This document shows, piece after piece, positions 1 to 62,552 of a stretch of DNA of 64,000 bases. Origin of the DNA: Parcubacteria group bacterium Gr01-1014_3 (GTDB lineage Bacteria; Patescibacteriota; Minisyncoccia; UBA6257; WO2-44-18); contig VMGF01000003.1 in NCBI GenBank assembly GCA_007376445.1, positions 31,024 to 95,023 of the forward strand, in the 5' to 3' direction. A program made the translations under genes and the position numbers. How positions within the stretch are numbered: position 1 is the first letter of the stretch; every line of letters starts with the position of its first letter. The notes under the pieces are model-generated. The model was not told the origin of the DNA. It worked only from the letters and a program-made list of their open reading frames with translations, and searched no databases.

Positions 1-60
1 CGAATGATGGATTCGTAATTCGTTTATTCGCTTGTTCGTATTGATTCGATATTCGTAATA

Positions 61-525
61 TTACTTCTTTTTCGTGTAGTTTAAAACTATCTTCTGCCCA
101 TCCTTCATTACTAAATTACCCAATTCAAGGCTTGGCTTCTCATCCACGGTCATTACTACATCATATCCCTCTCGCTCAATGGTTTTACCCCAAAGGCCGA
201 AAAATTCTCCCAGCAGATAGTCGCGGGCAACCTGCGCCTCAATGTGAATAGTTCCGGTGGTGTCATGCATATGGATCGGACGGTGACAGCTACCCTCCAA
301 GCCAAGGTCGGCCGGAATCGGATCATCTTCGCCATCAACCAAAATTTTCAGCACTGGATGCCAGTGTAGGGCCAGCTGCACATTCGGGAGTAAGCAAGGC
401 AAGTTCGCGACATTCACGGTACTCGCGGTGCCGTTAGATCCGCCCTTTAATTTCGGCCCAACAAAAACTACCGCCATCACCAAAACTACCGCTCCAATTA
501 CCCAATTTTGATATTTGCTCATCAT
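61..525 (-). CDS. hypothetical membrane-anchored His-rich protein (N-terminal TM helix; HWHP / HRPIHMH motifs suggest metal binding)
   Basis: ORF track; N-terminal hydrophobic helix; no family recognised. Confidence 0.4.
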   Translation of the reverse strand: MMSKYQNWVIGAVVLVMAVVFVGPKLKGGSNGTASTVNVANLPCLLPNVQLALHWHPVLKILVDGEDDPIPADLGLEGSCHRPIHMHDTTGTIHIEAQVARDYLLGEFFGLWGKTIEREGYDVVMTVDEKPSLELGNLVMKDGQKIVLNYTKKK

Positions 526-3154: not shown

Positions 3155-3631
3155 TTGAATAAGATGACTATTCGGATAGCAAATAAACAAGATCTTCCCT
3201 CGATCCTCAAAATGGCTTCGGAGATGATCGATTATCATCATTCGCTGGATAAGTACTACAAGCCATCCGCGGACTATAAAAATCTGGAGGAAACGATGAC
3301 TGCCGACCTCAACGATAAAGATGTCGTGTTTTTAATCGCCGAGGAAAATGGAAAGACTCTAGGCTATATCCGCGGCGTAGTGGAATCGGCGCCGGAGTAC
3401 ATCAAACCGAAAAAGATCGGCGTGGTTTTTGACGCTTTCGTGGAAGATAACGCGCGCGAAAGTGGGATCGGAAAACAGCTTTTTGAAGAACTGAAAAAAT
3501 GGTTCGCCACCAAAAAAGTTAAACACCTGGAGTTGAGCGTGGACGCCCGCAACTCCGCCGGTATCGCCTTTTGGAAAAAGCTCGGCTTCTCGGATTACAA
3601 ACTCCGCCTGCGCCAAGAACTCAATGATTAG
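3155..3631 (+). CDS. GNAT family N-acetyltransferase
   Basis: GIGKQLFEEL...ARNSAGIAFWKKLGF acetyl-CoA binding pattern. Confidence 0.75.
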   Translation: MNKMTIRIANKQDLPSILKMASEMIDYHHSLDKYYKPSADYKNLEETMTADLNDKDVVFLIAEENGKTLGYIRGVVESAPEYIKPKKIGVVFDAFVEDNARESGIGKQLFEELKKWFATKKVKHLELSVDARNSAGIAFWKKLGFSDYKLRLRQELND

Positions 3632-5171
3632 TCTTAAAAGCTGGGGCGTGCCTTTCCTGGCCCTGCTGGCGATAATCGCTTTTTTCCAGTTCGTCTCACC
3701 CAATATCCCCGAATCCGACAGCTTCTACTATATGGGCCTCGGCGCTCTTTATAGCGAACAGGGTATTTTCAACGTGGATTTCCCTTGGATCTTCCACTCC
3801 ACCATCCACACATTCTCTTCCTCGCTCTGGTGGGGGTTTGGAGTGGTGATGCTCCCTTTTTCCCTGCTACCGGACCAATTGCTAGCGATTAAAATTGCCG
3901 GCCTGATCTTCGGTTCGCTGGCGCTTTACGCCTACTATTATGTATCGCGGCGAGAAGATTTAGTGATGCCGCTTTTCTGGCCATTTCTGCTTTTCTTTTC
4001 GGCTCCCAATATCCTCTCCCGCTTCCTGATGGTGCGCCCGCAGATCATCTCCTTGCCGCTGAGCTTTTTATTGTTCTCCGGCCTGCTTAATAATCAATCC
4101 TGGCTGGTTTTCCTCGCTTCTTTTGGCATTGCCTGGTTCCATCTTAACTTTGCCTGGGTGCCGATAATGCTTTTGGTAATCGTGATGACGGCAAAATTAT
4201 TTTTCGAGAAATCTTTTAACTGGAAACCGGCTATGGCCGTGCTGAGCGGCGTACTTTTGGGCTGGGTCGCCCGCCCACAATTCTGGAACGCGGCCAATCT
4301 TTTTTATATCCAGATCTTCCAGCAAATCTTTGAGAAGCAGGGTGGCCTACCGCTTCTTTTTGGCAAAGAAAACCTCCCCCTCCCAGCCTCGATTCTATTC
4401 GGCAATTTTCTTATTATCCTAATCCTTTGGCTTGCCGTGATCGGCGTTGCCGCCTGGATGAGTTCGCGTTCCAGCCGATTTCAGTTGGGAGCCAAAGAAA
4501 AGATAACTCTTTGGACCAGTATAGCGATCTCCTCGATCTTCTTTTTGCTTTCTATTGTAGTGGCGCGCCGAGCCTATGATTTCTGGGTCGCTTTTGGCGT
4601 GCTCGCCATCGCCATGGCCTATTCGATTATTGTCCGGAACTCCACTCACCTACGTCTCCAATCGCTCGCTAACAATCTTATGATCGGCCTTTGGGCCGCG
4701 CTGGTTTTCCTGGCCTTATTCTCGGGTATTAAAATAATCGACGCCCTGAAACAAAGTTACGCGCCAAATGAACTCCAGGAAGTCTCCCTCTGGCTCAAGA
4801 GCAACTCCAAGCCAGGCGAGATCGTTTTTAATCTTCACTGGGCCGACTTCTCGCCGCTCTTTTTCTGGAATCGGAATAATTATTATGTTGGTGGCCTGGA
4901 TCCGATCTTCCAGTACTCCTATGACCCAAGTCTTTACTGGAAATTCCACTATCTTTCTACTGACCAAGTTACCAAAAAAACCTGCGGTGCTATCGAATGC
5001 ACCTCGGATCAACTCGTGGATACCTACGGTGTTTTGAAAAATGATTTTAACGCGAAATATGTCGTGCTGACTAAAAAAGAAAATCCAGCGGTCTTCCAAT
5101 ACCTCTCCTCTGACTCGCATTATGTAAAAAGTTTTGAGACTGAGAAGGAGGCGGTGTTTTTTATTAAATAA
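3624..5171 (+). CDS. polytopic integral membrane protein, possibly GT-C fold glycosyltransferase (PMT/ArnT-like)
   Basis: More than 10 predicted TM helices with a C-terminal soluble domain; family assignment tentative. Confidence 0.4.
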   Translation: MISLKSWGVPFLALLAIIAFFQFVSPNIPESDSFYYMGLGALYSEQGIFNVDFPWIFHSTIHTFSSSLWWGFGVVMLPFSLLPDQLLAIKIAGLIFGSLALYAYYYVSRREDLVMPLFWPFLLFFSAPNILSRFLMVRPQIISLPLSFLLFSGLLNNQSWLVFLASFGIAWFHLNFAWVPIMLLVIVMTAKLFFEKSFNWKPAMAVLSGVLLGWVARPQFWNAANLFYIQIFQQIFEKQGGLPLLFGKENLPLPASILFGNFLIILILWLAVIGVAAWMSSRSSRFQLGAKEKITLWTSIAISSIFFLLSIVVARRAYDFWVAFGVLAIAMAYSIIVRNSTHLRLQSLANNLMIGLWAALVFLALFSGIKIIDALKQSYAPNELQEVSLWLKSNSKPGEIVFNLHWADFSPLFFWNRNNYYVGGLDPIFQYSYDPSLYWKFHYLSTDQVTKKTCGAIECTSDQLVDTYGVLKNDFNAKYVVLTKKENPAVFQYLSSDSHYVKSFETEKEAVFFIK

Positions 5172-5203
5172 AAAGCCCGGTCGAATGACCGGGTGGTTTT
5201 TTT
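5171..5203. terminator. bidirectional terminator (CCCGGTCGAATGACCGGG + T-run)
   Basis: Hairpin with A and T runs between convergent genes. Confidence 0.65.
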
Positions 5204-6059
5204 AACTTGGAAGCTTTCTGGAAACGCCGACGGCGAATGGGGGTGTTAATGGGGCGCTATCACCAGCCGCAAACGACTTCCGGCTTGCTGGCCACGCCGG
5301 AAGTAGCTTTAAATCGAGCTCAATCGAAACAACCAACTCGGCCACCTGACTATGATCAAGTTTGTCCATACAGCCATAAGAGATTTTTTCCTCAAGAACT
5401 GAAATCCCTTTTGTGCGCATGATAAACACCTTGACCAATTCTTCGATAAAATAGGATTGCTCATATCCGTCGGGTAAATGGTCTAGCCGCGATTTCCAAT
5501 CATATCCGCCGCCAACCCACAAATGCGGCAGAATCGGCATCAGATACCAGCGAAGATCGCAGGTCTGTTTCTGCAAACGATCTGGCTGAATTCCAAAATG
5601 TACAAAACCAAATGACGCGTAAAGCATAGATACACGCCTGGGCTTCATGGGGTGCTGGCCATCGCTATCAAGGCCCAGAAAAGCGATATGCGTCTCGCGA
5701 ATAGTTTTGCCTTTCACAAAGGGGCAGGATGAATTGAGAACATCCGCGTCCCATGGGAATTTCGCCGCCGCGGCAAGCATGGTCTTATTAAACTTCACCT
5801 GGAAGTGTCTTTCCCAATCTTCCACGCCGAAGAAGTTCTCGGCCATAACGGCTTTCACGACCTTGTAGTCCATCGGCATATCCACTCCGCCACGGATCAT
5901 GCACTCGGCAACCTTTTTCGCGTACATCTTATCGGTCGCCAATCTCTCGAGGTGCTTCACTTCCATGCCCTGATCCACCAGCGCATCCATACAATTCAAA
6001 AGCAGCTTAAAGCTCATATTACCAACCGCGCGATCATCTTTCTCTGGCTTCACAGCCAC
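5202..6059 (-). CDS. hypothetical protein (285 aa), C-terminus low-complexity and GC-rich
   Basis: ORF only; 3' 100 nt unusually GC-rich, containing hairpin ACTTCCGGC...GCCGGAAGT. Confidence 0.35.
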   Translation of the reverse strand: MAVKPEKDDRAVGNMSFKLLLNCMDALVDQGMEVKHLERLATDKMYAKKVAECMIRGGVDMPMDYKVVKAVMAENFFGVEDWERHFQVKFNKTMLAAAAKFPWDADVLNSSCPFVKGKTIRETHIAFLGLDSDGQHPMKPRRVSMLYASFGFVHFGIQPDRLQKQTCDLRWYLMPILPHLWVGGGYDWKSRLDHLPDGYEQSYFIEELVKVFIMRTKGISVLEEKISYGCMDKLDHSQVAELVVSIELDLKLLPAWPASRKSFAAGDSAPLTPPFAVGVSRKLPS

Positions 6060-6109
6060 CTCCTCAAATAGTTAAAGTTCCGACTAGATATTACAATAAT
6101 AACTTGCTT

Positions 6110-6240
6110 TTGACAATATAAATTTTCAATTCGCAATTTTACAATTTTCAATCAATTTCCAAGCATGAATTTTCAAATAGTTTGAACTTTCGGTCTTGAC
6201 CCTTGAATGAAAATTGGTATTTGAAAATTGAGAATTAAAG
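6110..6240. repeat. intergenic repeat family A copy 1 (CAATTTTCAAT...GGTCTTGA...GAATGAAAATTGGTATTTGAAAATTGAGAATT)
   Basis: Near-identical blocks at 44075-44190, 47365-47516 and 50210-50290. Confidence 0.7.
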
Positions 6241-6245
6241 AACAT

Positions 6246-7154
6246 TTAAACTTTCAAATATCTTCGCACCGCAATCGTGCTAGAAACTCCGCCAAGAAAA
6301 ATACCAAATAAAAGCTGATAGCCAAACAATATCGGTAAATTACCAAAGAAGTAATTTGTCAGATTCATCTCCGGAATGAACGCGCCGACATAAGGCGAGG
6401 CCAGCGAAACTATCGGCGCCGCGATCATCAAGCTAATTACCGCGGCAATAGCTCCGTAAATAATGCCGTTCACCAGATAAGGCCCATTGATATACATATT
6501 AGAGGAACCCACCAGACGCATAATGCCGATCTCTTCGCGGTTGGAATAGATAGCGAGGCGGATGCTGTTGAAAGTCACCAAGGCGGCGATTAGCGCCAAG
6601 AACATCGTGGCTACCAAGCCAGAGTTCTGGAAGGTATCGATCAGGCGCGCCAAGCGATCAATCGCCAGGCGGTTTTCTGTATAGCTAACCTTTTCAATAA
6701 TCGAAGCCAGATTTTCATTGTCCAAATATTCCACGATGTTGGCATACTGCCCAGGATCATTCGCCTTAACATTCAACGCTGCGAGCAAAGGGTTGGCCTG
6801 CAATTCCGCGAGAGCCTGGGAAACGGTCGGATCATCTTTGTGGTCGTTTTTAAATATCTCTAAGGCCTTTTCTTGAGAAATATATTCCACGCTTTTTACT
6901 TCGACGAGACTTTCCATCGCCCGCTCTAATTTCAAAATTTCATCCTCTTTAGCTACATCTTTAAAATAAACGCTGATATCAATCTTGTCCTGAATTGAAG
7001 TCACCGCCACGCGGGAAATGGCGCTGAAAATGATCAGTCCGTTAAAAACTATCAGAGCCAAGATTAAGACAGCGATGGTGGTGATCGAAAGCCAGCCATT
7101 GCGGCTGAAGCTTTGAAGTCCAAACTTAATTATTCTCGCGAGTGTAGTTGCCAT
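6246..7154 (-). CDS. ftsX: cell division permease FtsX
   Basis: 4-TM topology with periplasmic domain; follows ftsE. Confidence 0.85.
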   Translation of the reverse strand: MATTLARIIKFGLQSFSRNGWLSITTIAVLILALIVFNGLIIFSAISRVAVTSIQDKIDISVYFKDVAKEDEILKLERAMESLVEVKSVEYISQEKALEIFKNDHKDDPTVSQALAELQANPLLAALNVKANDPGQYANIVEYLDNENLASIIEKVSYTENRLAIDRLARLIDTFQNSGLVATMFLALIAALVTFNSIRLAIYSNREEIGIMRLVGSSNMYINGPYLVNGIIYGAIAAVISLMIAAPIVSLASPYVGAFIPEMNLTNYFFGNLPILFGYQLLFGIFLGGVSSTIAVRRYLKV

Positions 7155-7158
7155 ATCT

Positions 7159-7839
7159 TTAATCTAGTATATATCTCCCACCCTCTTCATCTTTAATAAT
7201 TTTACCATTATCCAGGGTAATCACGCGGCGGCGAATCTTGTTGATGATTTCTTTGCTATGTGTCGCTAAAACCACCGTGGTGCCAAGTTCATTTATTTTT
7301 AAAAGCAGATTCACGATCTCCCAGGTATTATGCGGGTCCAAATTGCCGGTCGGCTCGTCGGCGATGATCACATCCGGGCGATGCACCATGGCGCGGGCGA
7401 TCGCCACCCTCTGCTTCATGCCGCCGGAAAGTTCGTGCGGGAAGCTATGCTGTTTATCCTTTAGGCCAACCATATCCAATACCTGCGGGACCAGCTCTTC
7501 GATCTCGTGCTCCGGACAGCCATTAACTTCCATCGCGAAGGCCACGTTTTCATACGCCGTCCTGGTTGGAAGTAGTTTAAAATCCTGGAACACGATACCG
7601 ATCTTCCTCCGAAGATCCGGTAGCTCTCTCATGCTTAGTTTATTCACCTCGGCAGAGCCGAAAAGAACCCTGCCTTGATTCGGTTTTTCTTCGGCAATAA
7701 GGAGCTTTACGATCGTGGACTTACCGGCGCCGGACTTACCCACCAAAGAAACAAACTCGCCAGGCGCGACTTTAAAGGAAATGTCGTCCAAAATCATCGA
7801 ATTGCCGTATTTTTTGGTTACTCCGTGGAAAGCTATCAT
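7159..7839 (-). CDS. ftsE: cell division ATP-binding protein FtsE
   Basis: GKSGAGKST Walker A, LSGGMKQR signature, IIADEPTGNLD Walker B. Confidence 0.9.
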   Translation of the reverse strand: MIAFHGVTKKYGNSMILDDISFKVAPGEFVSLVGKSGAGKSTIVKLLIAEEKPNQGRVLFGSAEVNKLSMRELPDLRRKIGIVFQDFKLLPTRTAYENVAFAMEVNGCPEHEIEELVPQVLDMVGLKDKQHSFPHELSGGMKQRVAIARAMVHRPDVIIADEPTGNLDPHNTWEIVNLLLKINELGTTVVLATHSKEIINKIRRRVITLDNGKIIKDEEGGRYILD

Positions 7840-7882
7840 AGTAGTAATCGCAAATATACAAATAAAAGATTAATATTGCGAA

Positions 7883-8293
7883 TTAAGCTACCGACGAATT
7901 CAAAATACGTCGATATTTAACTCCCTCTCTCGTAAAATATAGCAGAATTCCTAGCTTTAGACCAGCGCTTCGTAAATAAGTCAAAACCTGCTGAGTATGC
8001 ACATAACCAAACTTTTGAACGACTTTTAACTCCAAGAGAATTTTGTCATCTACAATAAAATCCGCAAAATACTTACCTATATTTTTAGCTTTGTATTCGA
8101 GCGGAATATAAACTTCCCGCTTAAATTCTAGGCCTTGTGTTTTCAATTCTTCAGCTAAAGCTCTTTGATAATCCTTTTCTGTAAATCCCCAACCTAATTC
8201 ATTAAAAACATCAAAAACAGCGCCTACAATTTTATAACTTAGCTCCGGTAAAATTACCTTATCAGCTTTTTCTATTTGCAATATTTTGTTCAT
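7883..8293 (-). CDS. GxxExxY family protein (PD-(D/E)XK nuclease-like)
   Basis: ELGWGFTEKDYQRAL carries the G-x-x-E-x-x-Y signature; paralog of 19019..19423. Confidence 0.8.
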   Translation of the reverse strand: MNKILQIEKADKVILPELSYKIVGAVFDVFNELGWGFTEKDYQRALAEELKTQGLEFKREVYIPLEYKAKNIGKYFADFIVDDKILLELKVVQKFGYVHTQQVLTYLRSAGLKLGILLYFTREGVKYRRILNSSVA

Positions 8294-8312
8294 AAATTCG
8301 CAATATTAGCGA

Positions 8313-9041
8313 TTACTCCAACTGTAGCTCTGCCTCCACAAACTTGTCGAGCTCTCCATCTAAAACCCGGTCCGGCTGGCGGTGCTCCACGTTTGTGCGG
8401 TGATCTTTGACCAGCTGATATGGATTCAGCACGTAAGATCGGATCTGATTCCCCCACTCCGGCTTTACTTTGGTGCGAAGCTCGGAAAGGGTTTGCTTCT
8501 GATTGGCGATCATCAACGCCAATAGCTTGGATTTCAAAAGCTGCATCGCCTTTTCCCGGTTCTGCGGCTGTGAACGCTCAGCCTGCGAAGCCGCGGCCAG
8601 GCCAGTCGGTAAATGAACAATGCGCATGGCCGTCTCGCGTTTATTTACATTCTGACCACCCGGCCCGCTGGAGCGCGACATTTCCAATTTCAAATCTTCC
8701 GGCGGGATCACGAGCTTACGATGTTCAATGTCCGGAAAGATCGGAACTATTTCCACCAGGGCAAACGAAGTATGGCGGAGTTTTTTGGAAGAAAATGGCG
8801 AAATTCGGACGAGCCGATGCACGCCCATTTCTTTTTTCAGCGTTCCATAGACAAATTCACCTTTTATTTCCATCGCGCGATCATCCACGATCGAAGTTTT
8901 CCAGCCCCGCTTTTCCGCGTACTTCAAATACATCTTAAAAAGCATATTCGCCCAATCCTTGGCGTCATCCCCGCCCACGCCGGCGTGAATAGTTAAGTGG
9001 ACTGGGCCGTGATCATATTTTCCTGTCAGGGGCTTAAACAT
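8313..9041 (-). CDS. prfB: peptide chain release factor 2 lacking N-terminal domain 1 (domains 2-4 only, 242 aa)
   Basis: SPF tripeptide (RISPFSS), GGQ motif (SGPGGQNVNK); aligns to E. coli RF2 from about residue 112 onward; ATG overlaps the stop of the upstream amidohydrolase (ATGTTTAA). Confidence 0.75.
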   Translation of the reverse strand: MFKPLTGKYDHGPVHLTIHAGVGGDDAKDWANMLFKMYLKYAEKRGWKTSIVDDRAMEIKGEFVYGTLKKEMGVHRLVRISPFSSKKLRHTSFALVEIVPIFPDIEHRKLVIPPEDLKLEMSRSSGPGGQNVNKRETAMRIVHLPTGLAAASQAERSQPQNREKAMQLLKSKLLALMIANQKQTLSELRTKVKPEWGNQIRSYVLNPYQLVKDHRTNVEHRQPDRVLDGELDKFVEAELQLE

Positions 9042-9852
9042 TGATTTTGAAAAGTTTCGCGGCGTTTTTATACATTACATATTCCATATCCGTCTTGGAA
9101 ATTCCCAGCTTTTTCACATATTTAATATATTCTTTCGGACCAGCGAGCGGCCAATCCGTGCCGAAAATAAGTTTACGGGGCGTCTGTGAATACGCGATCA
9201 GCTCCTTGATCTTCTGTATCGTCATTTTGCCATAAGGCGAGTTAAACCCGTCATGCAAAAACAAACCGGAAATATCGGCATAAACATTCGGATTCCTATA
9301 CAGAACTTCGGCGCAGTCCATCATCCAGGGATTCCCAAGATGCGCTATCACTATCTTTAGATTCGGAAAATCTACTGCCACCTCATCAACACCGAGCGGA
9401 TGCGCGTATTTCACTTTCGCGAAAGTCTTGTAGGCGAGCGTGTCTCCTGTATGGAAAATTACTGGTACGCCCAGTCGGTCGCACATTTCATAGATCGGTC
9501 GCGCGACCGAATCGCCTGGATAGAAATGCTGATAACCGAGGTAAAGTTTAACTCCGACGATCTTTTTCAGCCGGATCAAAACCTCCAGCCGATCCAAATC
9601 TTGCTTGGTGTATTCAGACACGTTCAAAGAACCAATCACATGCAGATTTGAAAGTTCTTCGGTTAATTTGATAAGCGTGTCCGTGGAGGGACCAGTGCCA
9701 TCCTCGCCTCGCCAATTCGCGATCACCAACGCGTGATCCACTTTATTCTTCTTCATCTCCGCTAAAAGAGCGCTTCTTATTTCTTCATAGGACTTTTTAG
9801 CGAACGGAGTATTTTCCAGCTTTGTTATGTGTGTGTGCGCGTCTATGATCAT
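9034..9852 (-). CDS. metal-dependent amidohydrolase (amidohydrolase-2 / TIM-barrel family)
   Basis: IDAHTH N-terminal metal-binding motif, HTGD, IAHLG motifs. Confidence 0.65.
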   Translation of the reverse strand: MIIDAHTHITKLENTPFAKKSYEEIRSALLAEMKKNKVDHALVIANWRGEDGTGPSTDTLIKLTEELSNLHVIGSLNVSEYTKQDLDRLEVLIRLKKIVGVKLYLGYQHFYPGDSVARPIYEMCDRLGVPVIFHTGDTLAYKTFAKVKYAHPLGVDEVAVDFPNLKIVIAHLGNPWMMDCAEVLYRNPNVYADISGLFLHDGFNSPYGKMTIQKIKELIAYSQTPRKLIFGTDWPLAGPKEYIKYVKKLGISKTDMEYVMYKNAAKLFKINV

Positions 9853-9854
9853 GG

Positions 9855-9927
9855 AGCCACCTCCCGGAATCGAACCGGGGACCTTTGCTTTACGAAAGCA
9901 CTGCTCTACCAGCTGAGCTAAGGTGGC
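9855..9927 (-). tRNA. tRNA-Thr (anticodon CGT), copy 1
   Basis: Manual cloverleaf on minus strand: GCCACCT...AGCTGGTAGAGC...loop TTCGTAA...TTCGATT...AGGTGGC; CCA may be encoded (9852-9854). Confidence 0.7.
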
Positions 9928-9966: not shown

Positions 9967-10075
9967 GAAAATAAGAGCAGGTGACGAGAATCGTCCGGTC
10001 ATACGACCGGACAGCCCAGTCGGATGACTGGGCGAACTCACGTCTCTACTTTACCCCGCACCTTTTCTCGATTAG

Positions 10076-10147
10076 AGCCAGAGAGAGGAGTCGAACCTCC
10101 AACCCCTCCCTTACGAAGGGATTGCTCTGCCATTGAGCTACTCTGGC
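10076..10147 (-). tRNA. tRNA-Thr-like (anticodon CGT), copy 2, flanked by 35-bp inverted repeats
   Basis: GCCAGAG..GCTCAATGGCAGAGC..loop TTCGTAA..GGAGGTTCGACTCCTCT..CTCTGGC; 27-43 mismatch. Confidence 0.6.
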
Positions 10148-18461: not shown

Positions 18462-18974
18462 CTACTCTAAAATACCATCAAGGTTTACGTCGTATAGAAT
18501 CGCCTCTGAAACAAGGCGGTAACGCGCGAGATCGTCTGATTTGAACCAAAGATTGATCTCCGCCTTAGCCTCCTCGGCGTTGCCGGAAGCATGAACGATG
18601 TTCCGCACAGCTCGGTTATCGGCGTCAGCGAGTTGATAAGAGTCCACGGTATAGTCGCCACGAATCGTGCCAACGTCCGAAGAGAGTGGCTCGGTGCCGC
18701 CAATCAGCTTTCGAACTATGCCGATCGCGTGGGCGCCCTCCCAAGCCATTGCCACTACCGGCCCGCTGGTCATGAGCCTTTTAAGATGTCCGAGCACTGG
18801 GTCTTTCATTTTGGCGTAATGCTGACCGATCGTTTCCGCGTTCGGCGTGACTAATTTTATGCCAACTAGCTTTAAGCCAACCCTCTCCAGGCGACCAATC
18901 ACCGCTCCGATAAGACCACGCTGAACACCATCGGGTTTTATTAATACTAAGGTTTGTTCTTGTTTAAGCTTCAT
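18462..18974 (-). CDS. ndk: nucleoside diphosphate kinase
   Basis: NIVHASGNAEEAKAEINLWF active-site His region. Confidence 0.9.
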   Translation of the reverse strand: MKLKQEQTLVLIKPDGVQRGLIGAVIGRLERVGLKLVGIKLVTPNAETIGQHYAKMKDPVLGHLKRLMTSGPVVAMAWEGAHAIGIVRKLIGGTEPLSSDVGTIRGDYTVDSYQLADADNRAVRNIVHASGNAEEAKAEINLWFKSDDLARYRLVSEAILYDVNLDGILE

Positions 18975-19018
18975 AGGGTTACGAATAACGAATTTATACT
19001 AATTAACGAATAATCGAA

Positions 19019-19423
19019 TTATAATTGATTTATAATCCTCTTGAATACCACGCCATCATTACTGAATGTAATCAAAATTGCAAGCCGTAAATTATTTAAT
19101 TTTAAATATTCGAGAACCTGATCAATGTGGGACTTAGAAAATCGTAGGCCACGCTTTATTTCTACAATGATTTTGTCATCGACTAAAAAATCTAAAAACT
19201 TTCTGCCAACAACCTCGTCTTGATACTTTATCGGACAATTAACTTGTTCAAGAAAGGATATTCCAGAACCTTTTAATGCCTGAGCCAGTGCCTTTTGATA
19301 ATATTTCTCGAGCAGACCCGGTCCGATTTCATTGAACACATCAAAAGCCCGGCCGATAATTTTATAGCTCAACTCTGGATAAATAAGATCATCTCTTTTT
19401 AAAACCGAAGCCTGTTTAATCAT
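19019..19423 (-). CDS. GxxExxY family protein (PD-(D/E)XK nuclease-like), second paralog
   Basis: EIGPGLLEKYYQKAL signature; flanked by inverted CGAATAACGAAT / ATTCGTTATTCG repeats. Confidence 0.8.
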   Translation of the reverse strand: MIKQASVLKRDDLIYPELSYKIIGRAFDVFNEIGPGLLEKYYQKALAQALKGSGISFLEQVNCPIKYQDEVVGRKFLDFLVDDKIIVEIKRGLRFSKSHIDQVLEYLKLNNLRLAILITFSNDGVVFKRIINQL

Positions 19424-19462
19424 AGATTCGTTTATTCGTATATTCGCCCGATTCGTTATTCG

Positions 19463-20896
19463 CTACTTGGTGATTTTCAGGTGTAGCTCTTTCATCTGCT
19501 TGTCGTCAACATCGGATGGGGCGTCCATCATCAGGTCTCGGCCATCGCCGGTTTTGGAAAACGCGATCACTTCGCGGATGTTTGGTTCATTCAACAGAAT
19601 CATCATCAAGCGATCAAAGCCGATTGCCGCTCCACCATGCGGAGGCACGCCATAAGAGAACGCGTCCATCATGTGGCCGAACTTATCGATCACCACCTTT
19701 TCTTCATAGCCAAGTAAAGTAAACGCTTTCTTCAAAAGATCCGGCAAGTGGTTACGGATGCTCCCACCGGCGATCTCAAAACCATTCAAAGCAAGGTCGT
19801 ACTGCATCGCCATCACATCTTTCAATTTGTCATAGTCATTGTCATTGGTCATATCTGGCAGTTTTTCTCCGTATGGCATACTGAACGGATTGTGGCCGAA
19901 GTCCCATTTTTTTCTCTGCCCTGAGCCCGCCTGCCCCGCCGCGGCGGTGGCCGAAGGGTCCTTCACCTCTTCGTAGAACGGAAAATCAATCACCCAGACG
20001 AAAGCTAGTTCGTTAGGATCATTTTTATCCTTTCGGAAATCCGGCTTATCGTTGCCATACTTTTCCATCGCTTCTTTATAGGAAATTCGCGGGAATGGAG
20101 CTTGCTGGATTTTCTTTTCCGGAAATTCACGCGTGACCAACTCGATCATCAAACCCTCGAGCACCGCCAAAACATCTTCGCGATTCACAAAGCTCATCTC
20201 TAAATCGATCTGTGTAAACTCCGGCTGGCGATCGCCGCGGGTATCCTCATCCCGGAAGCAACGAGCCACCTGAAAATATCGCTCCAATCCAGCCACCATC
20301 AAAAGCTGTTTATATTGCTGGGGAGACTGCGGAAGCGCGTAAAACTTGCCAGGGTACAATCGAGACGGCACTAAATAATCCCGAGCGCCTTCCGGCGTAG
20401 ACTTTGAAAGAATCGGAGTTTCCACCTCCACAAAATCCTGGCCTTTCATATATTCATCAATAAAGCCGAGGGTTTTACTTCGCAAGCGCAAATTCCTCTG
20501 CATTCTGGCTCGGCGTAAATCTACATAGCGGTATTTCATCCGGGCCTCCTCGCCAATCTCCGAACCATCCGTATCCACCGCGATCGGTGGAGTTTTCGCT
20601 TCGGAGTAAACTGATACTTCTTTTGCCAATATCTCGATCGTGCCGGTAGAAATATTCGGATTGACCATATTCGCCGGGCGAGCGTTGACCTGACCGGTGA
20701 TTTTCACCACCCACTCCGGGCGAAGCTTGTCAGCTTGCTCGTATAAATCTTTTAAAAAGACGACCTGAACCACGCCGCTCCGATCCCGAAGTTCAATAAA
20801 AATAAGTTTGCCGTGATCCCGGCGTACATGCACCCAGCCGGAAATTTCTACCTGCTCGCCGACTTTATTTACTAAGTCTCTGATAAGAGTTCGCAT
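19463..20896 (-). CDS. aspS: aspartyl-tRNA synthetase (bacterial type, likely non-discriminating)
   Basis: OB-fold N-domain, class II motifs, GAD-like insertion, GGAAIGFDRL motif 3; start placed at internal Met. Confidence 0.9.
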   Translation of the reverse strand: MRTLIRDLVNKVGEQVEISGWVHVRRDHGKLIFIELRDRSGVVQVVFLKDLYEQADKLRPEWVVKITGQVNARPANMVNPNISTGTIEILAKEVSVYSEAKTPPIAVDTDGSEIGEEARMKYRYVDLRRARMQRNLRLRSKTLGFIDEYMKGQDFVEVETPILSKSTPEGARDYLVPSRLYPGKFYALPQSPQQYKQLLMVAGLERYFQVARCFRDEDTRGDRQPEFTQIDLEMSFVNREDVLAVLEGLMIELVTREFPEKKIQQAPFPRISYKEAMEKYGNDKPDFRKDKNDPNELAFVWVIDFPFYEEVKDPSATAAAGQAGSGQRKKWDFGHNPFSMPYGEKLPDMTNDNDYDKLKDVMAMQYDLALNGFEIAGGSIRNHLPDLLKKAFTLLGYEEKVVIDKFGHMMDAFSYGVPPHGGAAIGFDRLMMILLNEPNIREVIAFSKTGDGRDLMMDAPSDVDDKQMKELHLKITK

Positions 20897-20921
20897 TGAT
20901 AATGAGTTTATCAAATAATCG

Positions 20922-21374
20922 CTACTTTGTCTCTTTTTTGATGACTTCCAAAATTCCAGAAATAACCTCACTTACCATCGCTCGCTCTCTAGTATTACCG
21001 TCTTTGTCCTTCACGTTTTCAAAAAGTAACTTGTCCCCGACTTTAATTAAATTCCGCAAATCTTCCTTTTCTTCTTTTGACAAACCCCGACCCGCATTAT
21101 TGCTATAGCTCTTCATGTCAAAATCGCCGGCTACCCAGCGAGCTATAAATTCTTCAGATTTCTCCAGATTACCCGAGTGGAACCATTCATCTTTTACATT
21201 TACCAACGGTCGTCCTTTTTCTCTGCCAATTAAGGTGATCTTATAAATAGTTTTGTCGTTTCCGCCAGTCGTCTCTATCGAAACGCGATCCCCGTTTACT
21301 AATTCACGTAAATCTACCTGTTCGATATTTTTTTCTTTTTCAGCCCTAGGCAGTTCCGGCTTCTCGAATTTCAT
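20922..21374 (-). CDS. hypothetical protein (150 aa)
   Basis: ORF only. Confidence 0.4.
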   Translation of the reverse strand: MKFEKPELPRAEKEKNIEQVDLRELVNGDRVSIETTGGNDKTIYKITLIGREKGRPLVNVKDEWFHSGNLEKSEEFIARWVAGDFDMKSYSNNAGRGLSKEEKEDLRNLIKVGDKLLFENVKDKDGNTRERAMVSEVISGILEVIKKETK

Positions 21375-44048: not shown

Positions 44049-44074
44049 ACCTTAATTCTAAAACACAAAACTCC

Positions 44075-44190
44075 AATTTCCAATTATCAATTTTCATTCA
44101 ATACGCAATAACCAAACTTTAAACGGTTTAAAAATTGGTTCTTTGAAAATTCAATGAAAATTGCAAAATTGAGAATTGAAAATTAAAGGA
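44075..44190. repeat. intergenic repeat family A copy 2
   Basis: CAATTTTCATTCAAT ... ATTCAATGAAAATTGCAAAATTGAGAATTGAAAATT inverted arms. Confidence 0.65.
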
Positions 44191-46805: not shown

Positions 46806-46876
46806 AGACAAATTTTAAATTTTTAATTTTGAAATTTTAAATTAATTTAAAATTTTTAATTTATAATTGAAAATTA
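46806..46876. promoter_or_regulatory. AT-rich palindromic leader element family B copy 3, directly upstream of rnc
   Basis: TTTAAAATTTTTAATTTATAATTGAAAATTATT core. Confidence 0.6.
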
Positions 46877-47350
46877 TTTTTCAGCCGCTTTCTCTTTCTT
46901 CTCCCTCTTCGGCTCCTCTTTCAAGTCGCCTGAGGCGATCATCTGCTTATAAACCGTGCCAAGCACGCCATTAATAAATTTACCGGAATTCGGACCGCCG
47001 TAATTTTTCGAAATCTCAATGGCTTCATTAATCGCCACCTTCGGTGGAACTTCCTCATGATCGGCATACATCAGCTCATAAAGTCCGATACGAATGGCAT
47101 TGCGGTCAATAATCGCGATCTGCTCAAGCGGCCAATCCGGCGCGACCTTCGTGATTATCTCGTTCAGGTCTTTTAAATGTTCAACTATCCCCTTTACTAA
47201 ACGCCAGGCAAAATCCGGCTCATCGATACCCGGAGCGAACTCCAGTAAGTTCCTCTCAACGATCTTGATAAGGTCATTCTTCTGACTATAAAAATCCCAC
47301 TCGTACAAAGATTGTAGGACTACGGAACGCGCTAGTTGTCGAGTAGCCAT
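46874..47350 (-). CDS. nusB: transcription antitermination factor NusB with Lys/Glu-rich tail
   Basis: NusB fold signature. Confidence 0.85.
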
Positions 47351-47364
47351 GTTTTTATTATTAC

Positions 47365-47516
47365 AGAAAAATTCTCAATTTTCAAATACCTGTTTTTGAA
47401 TTTCCAAATATCAATTTTGCAATTTTCAATCAATTTACAATGAATTAATTTTCAAAACCATTGATCCTTAGGTCTTGATGATTGAATGAAAATTGGTATT
47501 TGGAAATTGAAAATTA
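47365..47516. repeat. intergenic repeat family A copy 3 (longest)
   Basis: Aligns along about 110 nt with copy 1 at 6128-6240. Confidence 0.7.
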
Positions 47517-47766
47517 CTTAGAGGATCCGTAGTGGGCGCACTGTGGGCAGGTTTTGTGCGACAAAACCGGACCCTGGCAATTCGGGCATACGGAAATATT
47601 CAGCTTCTTGAGGGCCATATGCGAACGCCTGCGCCCCGTCTTCCCTTTTGAATGATGTTTTGTTGGTACACCTCCCATAAATTTATTAGTTAGATTATAT
47701 AGCTATTTCAGATTTTCGTCAACTTTGACTTTCAAATACACCGAGGCGTAAAATTAAGGGAGTTGT

Positions 47767-50182: not shown

Positions 50183-50209
50183 ACAATCGTCCCCGCAAAT
50201 GCGGGGACT

Positions 50210-50290
50210 TTTAATTTTCAATTCTCAATTTTGCAATTTTCAAATTTGGAAATTGAATGAAAATTGGTAATTGGAAATTGATAATTGGTG
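50210..50290. repeat. intergenic repeat family A copy 4 (short)
   Basis: CAATTTTGCAATTTTCAAATTTGGAAATTGAATGAAAATTGGTAATTGGAAATTG. Confidence 0.65.
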
Positions 50291-50324
50291 TTGTATAGTC
50301 TTGGTAGTTACTTGAAAGGGCTCA

Positions 50325-54917: not shown

Positions 54918-55015
54918 TTGCCGCCTCCTTGCCCCGCCATCGGCGTGGGCTGAAAAAAGGTTGTAAACTAACTGCTGGATATGTTAACCAATTTCCTTGA
55001 ATTTGTCAAATCATC

Positions 55016-55047
55016 CCACCCCACTATCACATGTGATAGTGGGGTGG
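55016..55047. promoter_or_regulatory. 32-bp perfect palindrome CCACCCCACTATCACATGTGATAGTGGGGTGG overlapping the promoter (TATAAT at 55048-55053) of the HTH gene
   Basis: Palindrome immediately followed by TATAAT and an 11-nt leader. Confidence 0.7.
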
Positions 55048-55064
55048 TATAATATTCATTACTT

Positions 55065-55544
55065 ATGATAATCAACAATAAAAAGCTGATTGGTAAATCA
55101 GCAGAAGATTGGACCGAGAAACTTTGGCTAAAGTTAATAGAAAAAGTTAGTCAAACAAATAATGAAGAGGCCACGAGAAAACTGATTGAGCACCTACTTA
55201 GCGCTGATGAGAAAAAGATGATCGCAAAAAGACTCGGTGTTATTGCGCTAATAAAATCTGACAAGTCTTATAAAGAAATCAGTGAAATTCTATGGTTGTC
55301 CCCCAATACCATCAGCACGATCAAAAAGAACATTTTAGGAAATGATGGAAATTATAAGAGTTATCGTAAATTTTATGGCGGGCCGAAAAAATGGAGCGCG
55401 GATATAAAATACGAAAAACCTTTTTGGGAAGACTTCAATCTATTAGAATTTATTGACGATTTGCTTCCGAGATATAGGGGTATAGGACTATTGAGCTCGC
55501 CGGACGTTGCCGCGAATCATACATATCGCAGAAGGCGAAAATAA
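55065..55544 (+). CDS. helix-turn-helix DNA-binding protein (sigma region-4 / TrpR-YerC-like HTH), probable regulator binding the flanking palindromes
   Basis: LSADEKKMIAKRLGVIALIKSDKSYKEISEILWLSPNTISTIKKNI HTH. Confidence 0.5.
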   Translation: MIINNKKLIGKSAEDWTEKLWLKLIEKVSQTNNEEATRKLIEHLLSADEKKMIAKRLGVIALIKSDKSYKEISEILWLSPNTISTIKKNILGNDGNYKSYRKFYGGPKKWSADIKYEKPFWEDFNLLEFIDDLLPRYRGIGLLSSPDVAANHTYRRRRK

Positions 55545-55557
55545 GGCCTCAATCAAT

Positions 55558-55585
55558 CAGCCACTATCACATGTGATAGTGGCTG
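55558..55585. promoter_or_regulatory. 28-bp perfect palindrome CAGCCACTATCACATGTGATAGTGGCTG downstream of the HTH gene
   Basis: Third copy of the palindrome family. Confidence 0.7.
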
Positions 55586-61783: not shown

Positions 61784-62335
61784 TTAAATCTTATTATAAA
61801 CGATATCCACTTTTTCCATTTTCGAAAGCACTCCGCCGGGGCCCTGCAGGCGAGACAAGGTTTTAACGAGAATATCCAGCAGGATTTTGGGGTCTGGGTG
61901 ATTCACCACCTCGACCTCTTTTCGTTCACACAAACCCCTTACGAAATCATTGTAAGCAGAGTTCGTAGAATTCCGATATGACCCCACGAAAACTATCCGC
62001 TTCACGCCCATTTGGAGCATGCTTTTGACGCAGTCGATACAGGGCGTGGCCACCACGTAAGCCGTCGCGCCATTGATGTCAGCGACCGAATTATCAATCG
62101 CGTTCCGCTCGCCATGCTGAGTGCGTTTGCAATGCCCTTCGATCATCAGATGACCGACGTCATCACAAGTATCCGCGCCCGCTACCGAACCGTTATATCC
62201 CGCGCCGACGATCTTATTGTTCTTCACTAAAACGCAGGCAGTCCGTAAACGATCGCAACTTCCCCGCGAAGACATGACCGTGGCCATCAGCAGAAAAAGT
62301 TCGTCCCAGCTCGGCTTATCCGTGGCGTCGCTCAT
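61784..62335 (-). CDS. dCMP/cytidine deaminase family protein (ComEB-like)
   Basis: HGERNAI and PCIDC zinc-binding motifs; AGGAGG RBS. Confidence 0.85.
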   Translation of the reverse strand: MSDATDKPSWDELFLLMATVMSSRGSCDRLRTACVLVKNNKIVGAGYNGSVAGADTCDDVGHLMIEGHCKRTQHGERNAIDNSVADINGATAYVVATPCIDCVKSMLQMGVKRIVFVGSYRNSTNSAYNDFVRGLCERKEVEVVNHPDPKILLDILVKTLSRLQGPGGVLSKMEKVDIVYNKI

Positions 62336-62412
62336 AAAACCTCCTAAGAACTTCTGGGATTGTACAAAATAAAAACCGCCCTCGCAAGTACATTCAGTAC
62401 ACTTTCTAGCGA

Positions 62413-62547
62413 GACAATAATCATTTTTCGGAACATGTCGGAGCCCAGACAGCTTGGTTTTTCGCGAAGCGAAAATGTCTGGGCGAGAGAGAAGAAAATC
62501 CGGCTGCTAGAGCCGGATTATTCTGTTTCCGAAAAATGATTATTGTC
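62413..62547. ncRNA. about 135-nt structured element: 23-bp outer inverted repeat (GACAATAATCATTTTTCGGAAAC) enclosing three inner hairpins; lies where rplA/L1 leader would be expected
   Basis: Perfect outer stem plus inner hairpins CCCAGACA...TGTCTGGG, TTTTCGCGAAGCGAAAA, AATCCGGCTGCTAGAGCCGGATT; no ORF. Confidence 0.45.
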
Positions 62548-62552
62548 GAAGC

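Follow-up and report, generated by a model that had tools for sequence, protein, structure and literature searches.

Among the closest described counterparts of the elements considered here are the intervening sequences (IVSs) of 23S rRNA that carry an open reading frame (ORF). More than 25 years after ORF-bearing rRNA IVSs were discovered, their origin and mobility were still described as unclear (PMC4990558). The IVS of Coxiella burnetii (S23p) is 428–444 nucleotides (nt) long, has a 28-base pair (bp) stem that is cut by RNase III, and a G+C content of 36% vs. 42.5% (PMC4990558). Here we describe two units of similar build, each formed around a gene of the GxxExxY family, in a 64,000-nt stretch of DNA (hereafter the window) from Parcubacteria group bacterium Gr01-1014_3, a member of the Patescibacteriota (contig VMGF01000003.1, positions 31,024 to 95,023). 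Like the Coxiella IVS, these cassettes are short (~470 nt), have a predicted stem of ~23 bp, hold one small ORF, and are poor in G+C (~34%, with 33.6% in gene 1 and 34.6% in gene 2, vs. 48–52% in the neighboring genes). As with the ORF-bearing 23S rRNA IVSs at large, they are suspected to be selfish, and the IVS protein family itself (PF05635) occurs in the same kind of cassette at another locus (L045). Unlike those IVSs, the window elements are flanked by protein-coding genes within an mRNA operon and do not lie in helix 25 or 45 of 23S rRNA (no rRNA lies within the window), their cargo is a PD-(D/E)XK nuclease, and their arms are arrays of short units.

Other systems share parts of this design. 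In REPtrons, genes of REP-associated tyrosine transposases (RAYTs, of the HUH/Y1 type) are flanked by inverted repetitive extragenic palindromic (REP) sequences, which are also dispersed as REPIN doublets; RAYTs are usually single-copy with hundreds of REPINs, and their REPs do not directly abut stop and start codons. The likeness lies in a single gene bracketed by an inverted short repeat, and perhaps in gene-less hairpin doublets of that repeat, five of which were seen within 3 kb of cassettes. The cargo here is PF13366 rather than HUH/Y1, however, and several diverged gene copies but few gene-less hairpins were seen. The Correia/NEMIS elements of Neisseria, which are miniature inverted-repeat transposable elements (MITEs), are likewise short hairpin elements bounded by inverted repeats and intergenic in operons; they have a TA target duplication, many near-identical copies, no nuclease gene inside, and transcripts that are cut by RNase III. 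In the fold-back of hok mRNA, long-range pairing between the 5′ and 3′ ends closes a whole small ORF and silences its translation, but hok belongs to a toxin–antitoxin system with its own promoter and an antisense RNA, neither of which was seen in the window cassettes. Transposons and MITEs with terminal inverted repeats (TIRs) are matched in the repeats, but not in target-site duplication, near-identical copies or a transposase. Integron gene cassettes, which have a single 3′ attC and are arrayed by intI, differ in that the present cassettes have an arm at either end, are scattered between housekeeping genes and have no integrase close by. In the literature searched, we found no description of flanking repeats of GxxExxY genes; one may exist elsewhere. 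We give about an even chance to the view that the units are promoterless selfish single-gene cassettes residing in host operons, whose arms form a closing stem as in an ORF-bearing rRNA IVS.

Inverted arms of GxxExxY genes

The two GxxExxY ORFs (coordinates of all features are collected in Table 1) are the only copies of the family in the window, and each is bounded by inverted arms. The hidden Markov model (HMM) of GxxExxY/PDDEXK_3 (PF13366) recognizes gene 1 and gene 2 with E-values of 1e-35 and 1e-31; the scores are 122.6 and 110.3 bits with Pfam PF13366 (cut-off 22), and 121.4 and 110.7 bits with NCBIfam TIGR04256 (cut-off 35). The two proteins are 47% identical. The cassettes lie at the prfB–ftsE and aspS–ndk junctions, and these four genes and both GxxExxY genes are on one common strand.

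The repeats that a preliminary description had reported around both genes and at the window start were all found where it had placed them. In cassette 1, GTAATCGC (7844–7851) and AATATTGCGAATT (7872–7884) stand opposite AATTCGCAATATT (8295–8307) and GCGATTAC (8309–8316). The inverted repeats comprise a perfect 14-nt pair (7871–7884/8295–8308) and an outer 27-nt pair matching at 78% (7831–7857/8303–8329), the outer GTAATCGC/GCGATTAC pair lengthening to GGAGTAATCGC/GCGATTAC(TAC). On the coding strand the order is ...CTG GAG TAA (prfB stop) TCGC-T-AATATTGCGAATT-T-ATG (ORF) TAA-TTCGCAATATTA-atctttt-ATTTGTATATTTGCGATTAC-tact-ATG (ftsE), with the prfB stop within the 5′ arm and the ftsE start 4 nt past the 3′ arm. 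In cassette 2, CGAAT ×4 (18982–19019) stands opposite ATTCG ×5 (19426–19462), the outer inverted repeat being perfect over 12 nt (18982–18993/19451–19462), and the coding strand reads AAG TAG (aspS stop)-(CGAAT)5-ATG ... TAA-(ATTCG)4-TAACCCT-ATG (ndk). The same tandem pattern recurs at the window start (ATTCG ×5 and CGAAT ×1 at 1–55), from which another cassette just upstream had been proposed. Read on the minus strand, this array (AAG TAA TATTACGAATATCGAAT...) is a 5′ arm that begins at the stop of ORF 61–525, so its presumed cargo would lie past the window start. Pairs of the form CGAATN{2,4}CGAAT have nine matches in the window, all at these three array sites, where 1.35 are expected, and none of 100 shuffles reached nine. 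Thus the repeats are not generic ATTCG microsatellites, an objection raised in advance by the preliminary description.

Neither window cassette was found to have an intrinsic terminator or a convincing promoter. The two 3′-arm units were considered as a possible outward promoter and gave one weak match, in cassette 1; the idea was rejected as a general one because at many loci the single 3′ unit leaves no space for a promoter.

Species-representative genomes were scanned and yielded 47 related GxxExxY loci, nearly all from Patescibacteria and in many contexts. Their flanks share a common design: (G)GAGTAATCGCGAATAATGCGAAT - 0–30 nt - ATG ... stop - ATTCGCATTATT - spacer - ATT(A/C)GCATTATTCGCGATTACTC(C) - 0–5 nt - ATG of the next gene. 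The arms consist of 7–10-nt units in inverted arrays, with the consensus GAGTAATCGCGAATAATGCGAAT in type 1 and (CGAAT-N2-4)n in type 2; the 5′ arm of cassette 1 fits the consensus arm of 36 loci. The 5′ flank was scored against the reverse complement of the 3′ flank, with 240 other genes of the same loci as controls. The median complementarity was 35 for the GxxExxY loci vs. 14 for the controls, and 42 of the 47 (89%) exceeded the control 95th percentile; the few controls with high scores comprise one PF05635 gene and host genes that lie between two elements. A second objection, that other copies of the family might lack flanking repeats, therefore fails, and single-gene units bounded by inverted repeats prove to be both real and general.

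Across 36 anchored arm pairs, 87% of the cells are paired and changes on both sides occur in 13 of 24 pairs; none of 500 shuffles reached the observed covariation, and slid registers also fell far below it. The type-1 arm motif (at most 2 mismatches) has 89 matches in 246 kb near GxxExxY genes vs. 2 in 356 kb of FtsE-centered control loci from other Patescibacteria. Complementarity, covariation, shuffles and motif density together reject a chance origin of the inverted arms. A separate observation concerns arm length: when the orthologous cassettes of L003 (4412–4573) and L006 are compared, the 58-nt 3′-arm unit stands in three tandem copies in one assembly vs. two in another sample of the same species, an arm copy-number polymorphism.

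The arms belong to the gene, and not to the site or the genome. The protein P0005, 73% identical to gene 1, is encoded between a response regulator and a MacB-type ABC transporter and has type-1 arms (GTAATCGCAAATAATGCGAAT ... ATTATTCGCGATCAC); the gene for P0125 (70% identity to gene 2) is part of a type IV secretion operon and has type-2 arms, (CGAAT-N2-3)n/(ATTCG-N2-3)n. Thus the two arm types of one genome track two protein clades. Six pseudogenised GxxExxY copies retain their arms. By these comparisons, arms and gene are inherited as one unit.

Eight copies from outside Patescibacteria, on plasmid or chromid records, were also examined. In Bacteroides finegoldii, the gene follows radA; its arms measure 30 nt and consist of CACAGAGGA units, and the ATG of the next gene comes 5 nt past the arm. 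The Bernardetia copy has CACAGAGA units, the Sphingomonas copy (fabD/gene/fabG) CGCGAAG units, the Gemmatirosa copy a 32-nt perfect inverted repeat of CCTCTGCG units, and the Treponema copy an 11-nt perfect inverted repeat. Since the first four share the design with other units, the architecture is widespread and the repeat sequence is lineage-specific. It was also observed that gene 2 is 61–63% identical to proteins of Bacteroidia and Flavobacteriales metagenome-assembled genomes (P0173, P0181, P0204), values near those for many Patescibacteria copies; the similarity suggests transfer between phyla.

Placement at junctions, and hairpins without the gene

The units occupy junctions where one gene of an operon stops and the next starts. 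At 14 of 31 loci, GAGTAA supplies the upstream stop with its TAA, and at 12 of the 17 others the stop lies within -8 to +10 nt (no call in 5); the downstream ATG follows GATTACT by 0–5 nt in 24–25 of the 31. Both neighbors are co-directional with the cassette at 35 loci, vs. one antisense (p = 1e-9).

The prfB–ftsE junction, compared in 80 relatives, holds a cassette in some (L060 has a GxxExxY cassette) and lacks it in others. Cassette-free prfB and ftsE overlap or are at most 17 nt apart in many loci (L061, L085, L103, L107, L097), so that the cassettes sit at junctions whose genes are tightly coupled in their absence. All that L062 shows there is a 17-nt sequence similar to a lone 3′ arm (TAATTAGTGAACACTCT-ATG), perhaps the scar of a deletion. 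Lineage-specific short-repeat hairpins stand at the junction in L063, L066, L071, L080 and L106. In L064/L065 (560–1215), a RelE/ParE-type toxin–antitoxin pair is present, followed by repeats containing CGAAT/ATTCG, as read by eye. Evidently, different selfish genes use this junction. Elsewhere, a GxxExxY cassette of L033 is closely followed by a gyrA gene (3310–6276) that contains an intein (PF14890).

Five gene-less arm pairs, with 60–130 nt between the arms, were found 1–3 kb from a cassette and in the same stop/start placement. Both ends of such elements (43–50 nt each) are 85–96% identical to those of the neighboring cassette ~1 kb away, and the ORF body is missing; the fold z-scores of these hairpins are -3 to -9.

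The arms also enclose another cargo. In L045, type-1 arms enclose a PF05635 (23S rRNA IVS protein) gene that also has arms of its own, GTTAGTT.../...AACTAAC. A second PF05635 gene, with arms (AGATGCTGCT)n/(CTAGCAGCAT)n, stands at the junction of two natural VirB4 ORFs. That the PF05635 cassette of L045 splits a VirB4 gene was considered and rejected, as the N-terminal and ATPase parts of VirB4 in L149 are naturally separate, overlapping ORFs.

The window itself contains seven A+T-rich intergenic hairpins of ~7-nt units, (AATTTTC)n ... (GAAAATT)n, between co-directional genes and with no gene inside (Table 1). They fall into two sequence families, one with AATTCGCAATTTT, which resembles the cassette 1 arm, and their z-scores are -2.6 to -4.2. 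They resemble the lineage-specific short-repeat hairpins of other Patescibacteria prfB–ftsE junctions. Beside one of them, which starts with TAAGTAATTTTCAAT, a small unlisted ORF for ribosomal protein L32 (MGVPTKHHSKGKTGRRRSHMALKKLN...; ~47525–47705, minus strand) was read by eye, its stop abutting the hairpin. Junction hairpins in Patescibacteria genomes are a class overlooked by gene callers and repeat finders.

Selfish cassette, transposon, regulator or homing gene

RNA folding predicts an arm–arm closing stem in both the minimum free energy and the centroid structures of the two window cassettes; in the polycistronic transcript, the arms are predicted to pair into a stem of at least 20 bp, with the entire ORF in its loop. 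A hairpin role at the RNA level, similar to that of IVSs and not considered in the preliminary description, is suggested by the strict sense orientation and by the flush placement between stop and start codons. If the units are indeed promoterless selfish cassettes with a closing stem, each would comprise a 5′ arm, the GxxExxY ORF and a 3′ arm, set in the sense orientation at an operon stop/start junction (prfB|ftsE, aspS|ndk). The stem would make the insertion tolerable by rejoining the stop and start codons of the host at its base. It would probably also either offer a site to RNase III or silence the nuclease by folding back, by analogy with the ORF-bearing 23S rRNA IVSs. At the DNA level, the cassette would be a long-lived selfish element that is copied or lost occasionally, the Cas4-like nuclease being the likely agent on the hairpin or junction.

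The protein alignment retains G35-x-x-E38-x-x-Y41, D77 and E87-x-K89, the GxxExxY motif and the PD-(D/E)XK catalytic residues, and the AlphaFold2 model is confident (predicted local distance difference test score 89.8). No solved structure of a relative was found by sequence. The GxxExxY protein differs from Cas4/RecB-like PD-(D/E)XK nucleases in being only 135 amino acids (aa) long, without an Fe–S cluster module or CRISPR context. The window proteins have PF13366 as their sole domain and no transposase or recombinase domain; defense-system models (PADLOC) gave no match beyond one marginal (E 0.008), and no relatives were found on viral contigs. The GxxExxY family is large, was taken as multi-copy in the preliminary description, and is given as of unknown function in a PD-(D/E)XK superfamily survey (PMC3424549).

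Protein pairs that are at least 77% identical all share one context, and contexts differ only at 73% identity or below. Copies at prfB–ftsE are 54–92% identical to gene 1, and the different-context copy P0005 is at 73%. As the latter is as close as same-context copies, relocation or exchange has happened, not recently; mobility of the cassettes is what we infer from these comparisons. The preliminary description had proposed small mobile or selfish cassettes. The selfish or foreign part of the proposal is supported by the low G+C content, by arms that accompany related genes into unrelated contexts, by presence or absence at prfB–ftsE, and by the gene-less derivatives nearby. Against the proposal as worded, target-site duplications, near-identical copies, a matching empty site in a close relative and a recombinase or transposase domain were not found.

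Several results weigh against the selfish, stem-closed cassette. Arm mismatches on the sense strand show no wobble bias (G·U 44 vs. A·C 40, p = 0.74), so that they give no positive sign of selection on pairing at the RNA level, and the same arm covariation would arise if the DNA repeats evolved in concert. Sequence conservation of the outer 11 nt of the arm extends to distant loci, which a pure stem would not need. The lack of G·U excess, the conserved outer arm and the binding-site-like arrays of units fit recognition at the DNA level or concerted evolution. Target-site duplications, for which the preliminary description had suggested looking, did not turn up: outside the arms of the window cassettes and of 45 loci, no direct repeat is present. 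Nor were near-identical copies in different contexts found among the copies compared. The empty sites that it hoped for in relatives were likewise missing in exact form from close relatives, as all those with 78–100% FtsE identity carry the cassette and the nearest empty junction is at 70%. Outside Patescibacteria, the flanking repeats of the Fusobacteria and Prevotella copies (2/8) are direct and not inverted, and the Persicobacter copy (1/8) has no flanking repeat. The RNA and DNA levels are not mutually exclusive, and the best explanation combines both.

A wider proposal, which we hold tentatively and with clearly less confidence than the cassette reading itself, is that the GxxExxY (PF13366) and PF05635 genes form a class of hairpin-bounded "intervening cassettes" that colonize operon stop/start junctions and rRNA helices across phyla. 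The stem would act as a splice-free bypass, either by RNase III excision or by termination–reinitiation, and with such a bypass the host operon would keep working. The element would be copied through cuts that the nuclease makes in hairpin or cruciform targets, and REPIN-like hairpins without the gene would be left behind. If this is true, rRNA IVSs would be one special case of a much larger class of mobile elements. The covarying arms, the flush placement, the gene-less hairpins and the architecture common with IVS-protein genes provide a testable model both for the function of GxxExxY and for the origin and mobility of IVSs.

The strongest rival, although in our judgment an unlikely one, is a classical DNA transposon or MITE family, in which the arms are TIRs with subterminal arrays of binding sites, GxxExxY is an end-recognizing nuclease or transposase, the gene-less hairpins are non-autonomous members, and the RNA structure is incidental. 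Much of the arm evidence can be read this way: the arrays of repeated units recall multi-site transposon ends, the outer arm is conserved, arm type tracks protein clade even inside one genome, gene-less derivatives have the ends of the local cassette, mismatches are without G·U bias, and the catalytic residues are conserved. Against such a transposon stand the absence of target-site duplication and of recent copies, and the 35-to-1 sense orientation and flush placement, unexpected for symmetric terminal repeats. In addition, a 135-aa PD-(D/E)XK domain is not known to have a strand-transfer or ligation module.

Slightly less likely still is immobile cis-regulation by the host, the arms acting as arrays of operators or iterons, or as an RNA fold-back of the hok kind, with the sole role of controlling a resident, possibly toxic nuclease gene. 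The GxxExxY start codon adjoins or falls inside the 5′ arm, and some N-termini (NNAN) are translated arm units; the closing stem appears in predicted folds, and the copies are old and mostly vertically inherited, all of which fits a regulator. It would not explain why gene-less hairpins and pseudogenised cassettes retain arms, why the same arms enclose the unrelated PF05635 cargo, or the low G+C content, presence or absence among relatives and relocation to other contexts.

A free-standing homing endonuclease gene, with GxxExxY cutting cassette-free junctions, the gene being copied by repair and the arms being secondary, is improbable. Homing would suit a gene inserted between conserved housekeeping genes, and a prfB–ftsE junction that varies among relatives between occupied and empty and also hosts the RelE/ParE pair and other hairpins. 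It would, however, spread the gene to the same locus only, leaving relatives in unrelated contexts with the same arms unexplained, and it accounts neither for the arms nor for the gene-less hairpins. Finally, chance or low-complexity repeats without biological meaning, in spite of the A+T-rich flanks, can be dismissed almost with certainty on the flank complementarity, covariation, shuffles and arm-motif density.

Further features of the window

Table 1. Positions of the cassettes, their neighbors and the A+T-rich hairpins in the window
Feature	Position	Strand	Remarks
Third array, 5′-arm type	1..63	-	coding strand AAGTAATATTACGAATATCGAAT...; TAA (61–63) = stop of ORF 61–525
ftsE	7159–7839	-	downstream neighbor of cassette 1; start codon 7837–7839
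Cassette 1 3′ arm	7840..7884	-	two units, AATTCGCAATATTA + ATTTGTATATTTGCGATTACTAC; ftsE start immediately after
GxxExxY gene 1	7883..8293	-	136 aa, minimal Cas4-like PD-(D/E)XK nuclease
Cassette 1 5′ arm	8295..8320	-	coding strand GGAGTAATCGCTAATATTGCGAATT; TAA (8313–8315) of GAGTAA = prfB stop
prfB	8313–9041	-	upstream neighbor of cassette 1
ndk	18462–18974	-	downstream neighbor of cassette 2; start codon 18972–18974
Cassette 2 3′ arm	18975..19021	-	ATTCG ×4 on coding strand; ndk start immediately after
GxxExxY gene 2	19019..19423	-	134 aa
Cassette 2 5′ arm	19424..19468	-	coding strand AAGTAG, then CGAAT ×5, spacing 7–9 nt; TAG 19463–19465 = aspS stop
aspS	19463–20971	-	upstream neighbor of cassette 2
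A+T-rich hairpins with loops	6116–6239, 44061–44186, 47376–47520, 50209–50295
A+T-rich hairpins without loop	29018–29084, 35877–35951, 46810–46880

The release factor 2 (RF2) homologue encoded by prfB upstream of cassette 1 is short, as are those of L003 (3250–3981) and L007 (3253–3981): at 242–243 aa they match positions 109–352 of the prfB model, and the N-terminal domain is missing. A 112-aa ORF upstream of prfB in relatives was considered as the missing domain and rejected, as it is a membrane protein.

Two copies of a ~100-nt structured element (TTCGGAAC...stem...CTTCTCTCTC...stem...GTTCCGAA) lie at 41700–41864 and 62400–62552 on the minus strand, upstream of genes for a phosphoribosyltransferase (41077–41604) and a cytidine/dCMP deaminase (61784–62335), respectively. 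The differences between their inner stems are compensatory, and no Rfam family matched the element; it may be an undescribed nucleotide-related riboswitch or leader. The palindrome CCACTATCACATGTGATAGTGG occurs at ~54985–55050 and 55555–55585, on either side of a Trp-repressor-like gene (55065–55544), and the two are likely an operator pair. A long near-perfect hairpin (AAAGCCCCGTCAAACCCCGCACCTTTGTAGGAC ... GTCCTACAAAGGTGCGGGGTCAAACGGGGCTT) lies at 40942–41076 between two minus-strand genes. Two tRNA-Thr(CGT) genes (9852–9927 and 10075–10147), 150 nt apart, stand beside a tRNA-Gly gene.

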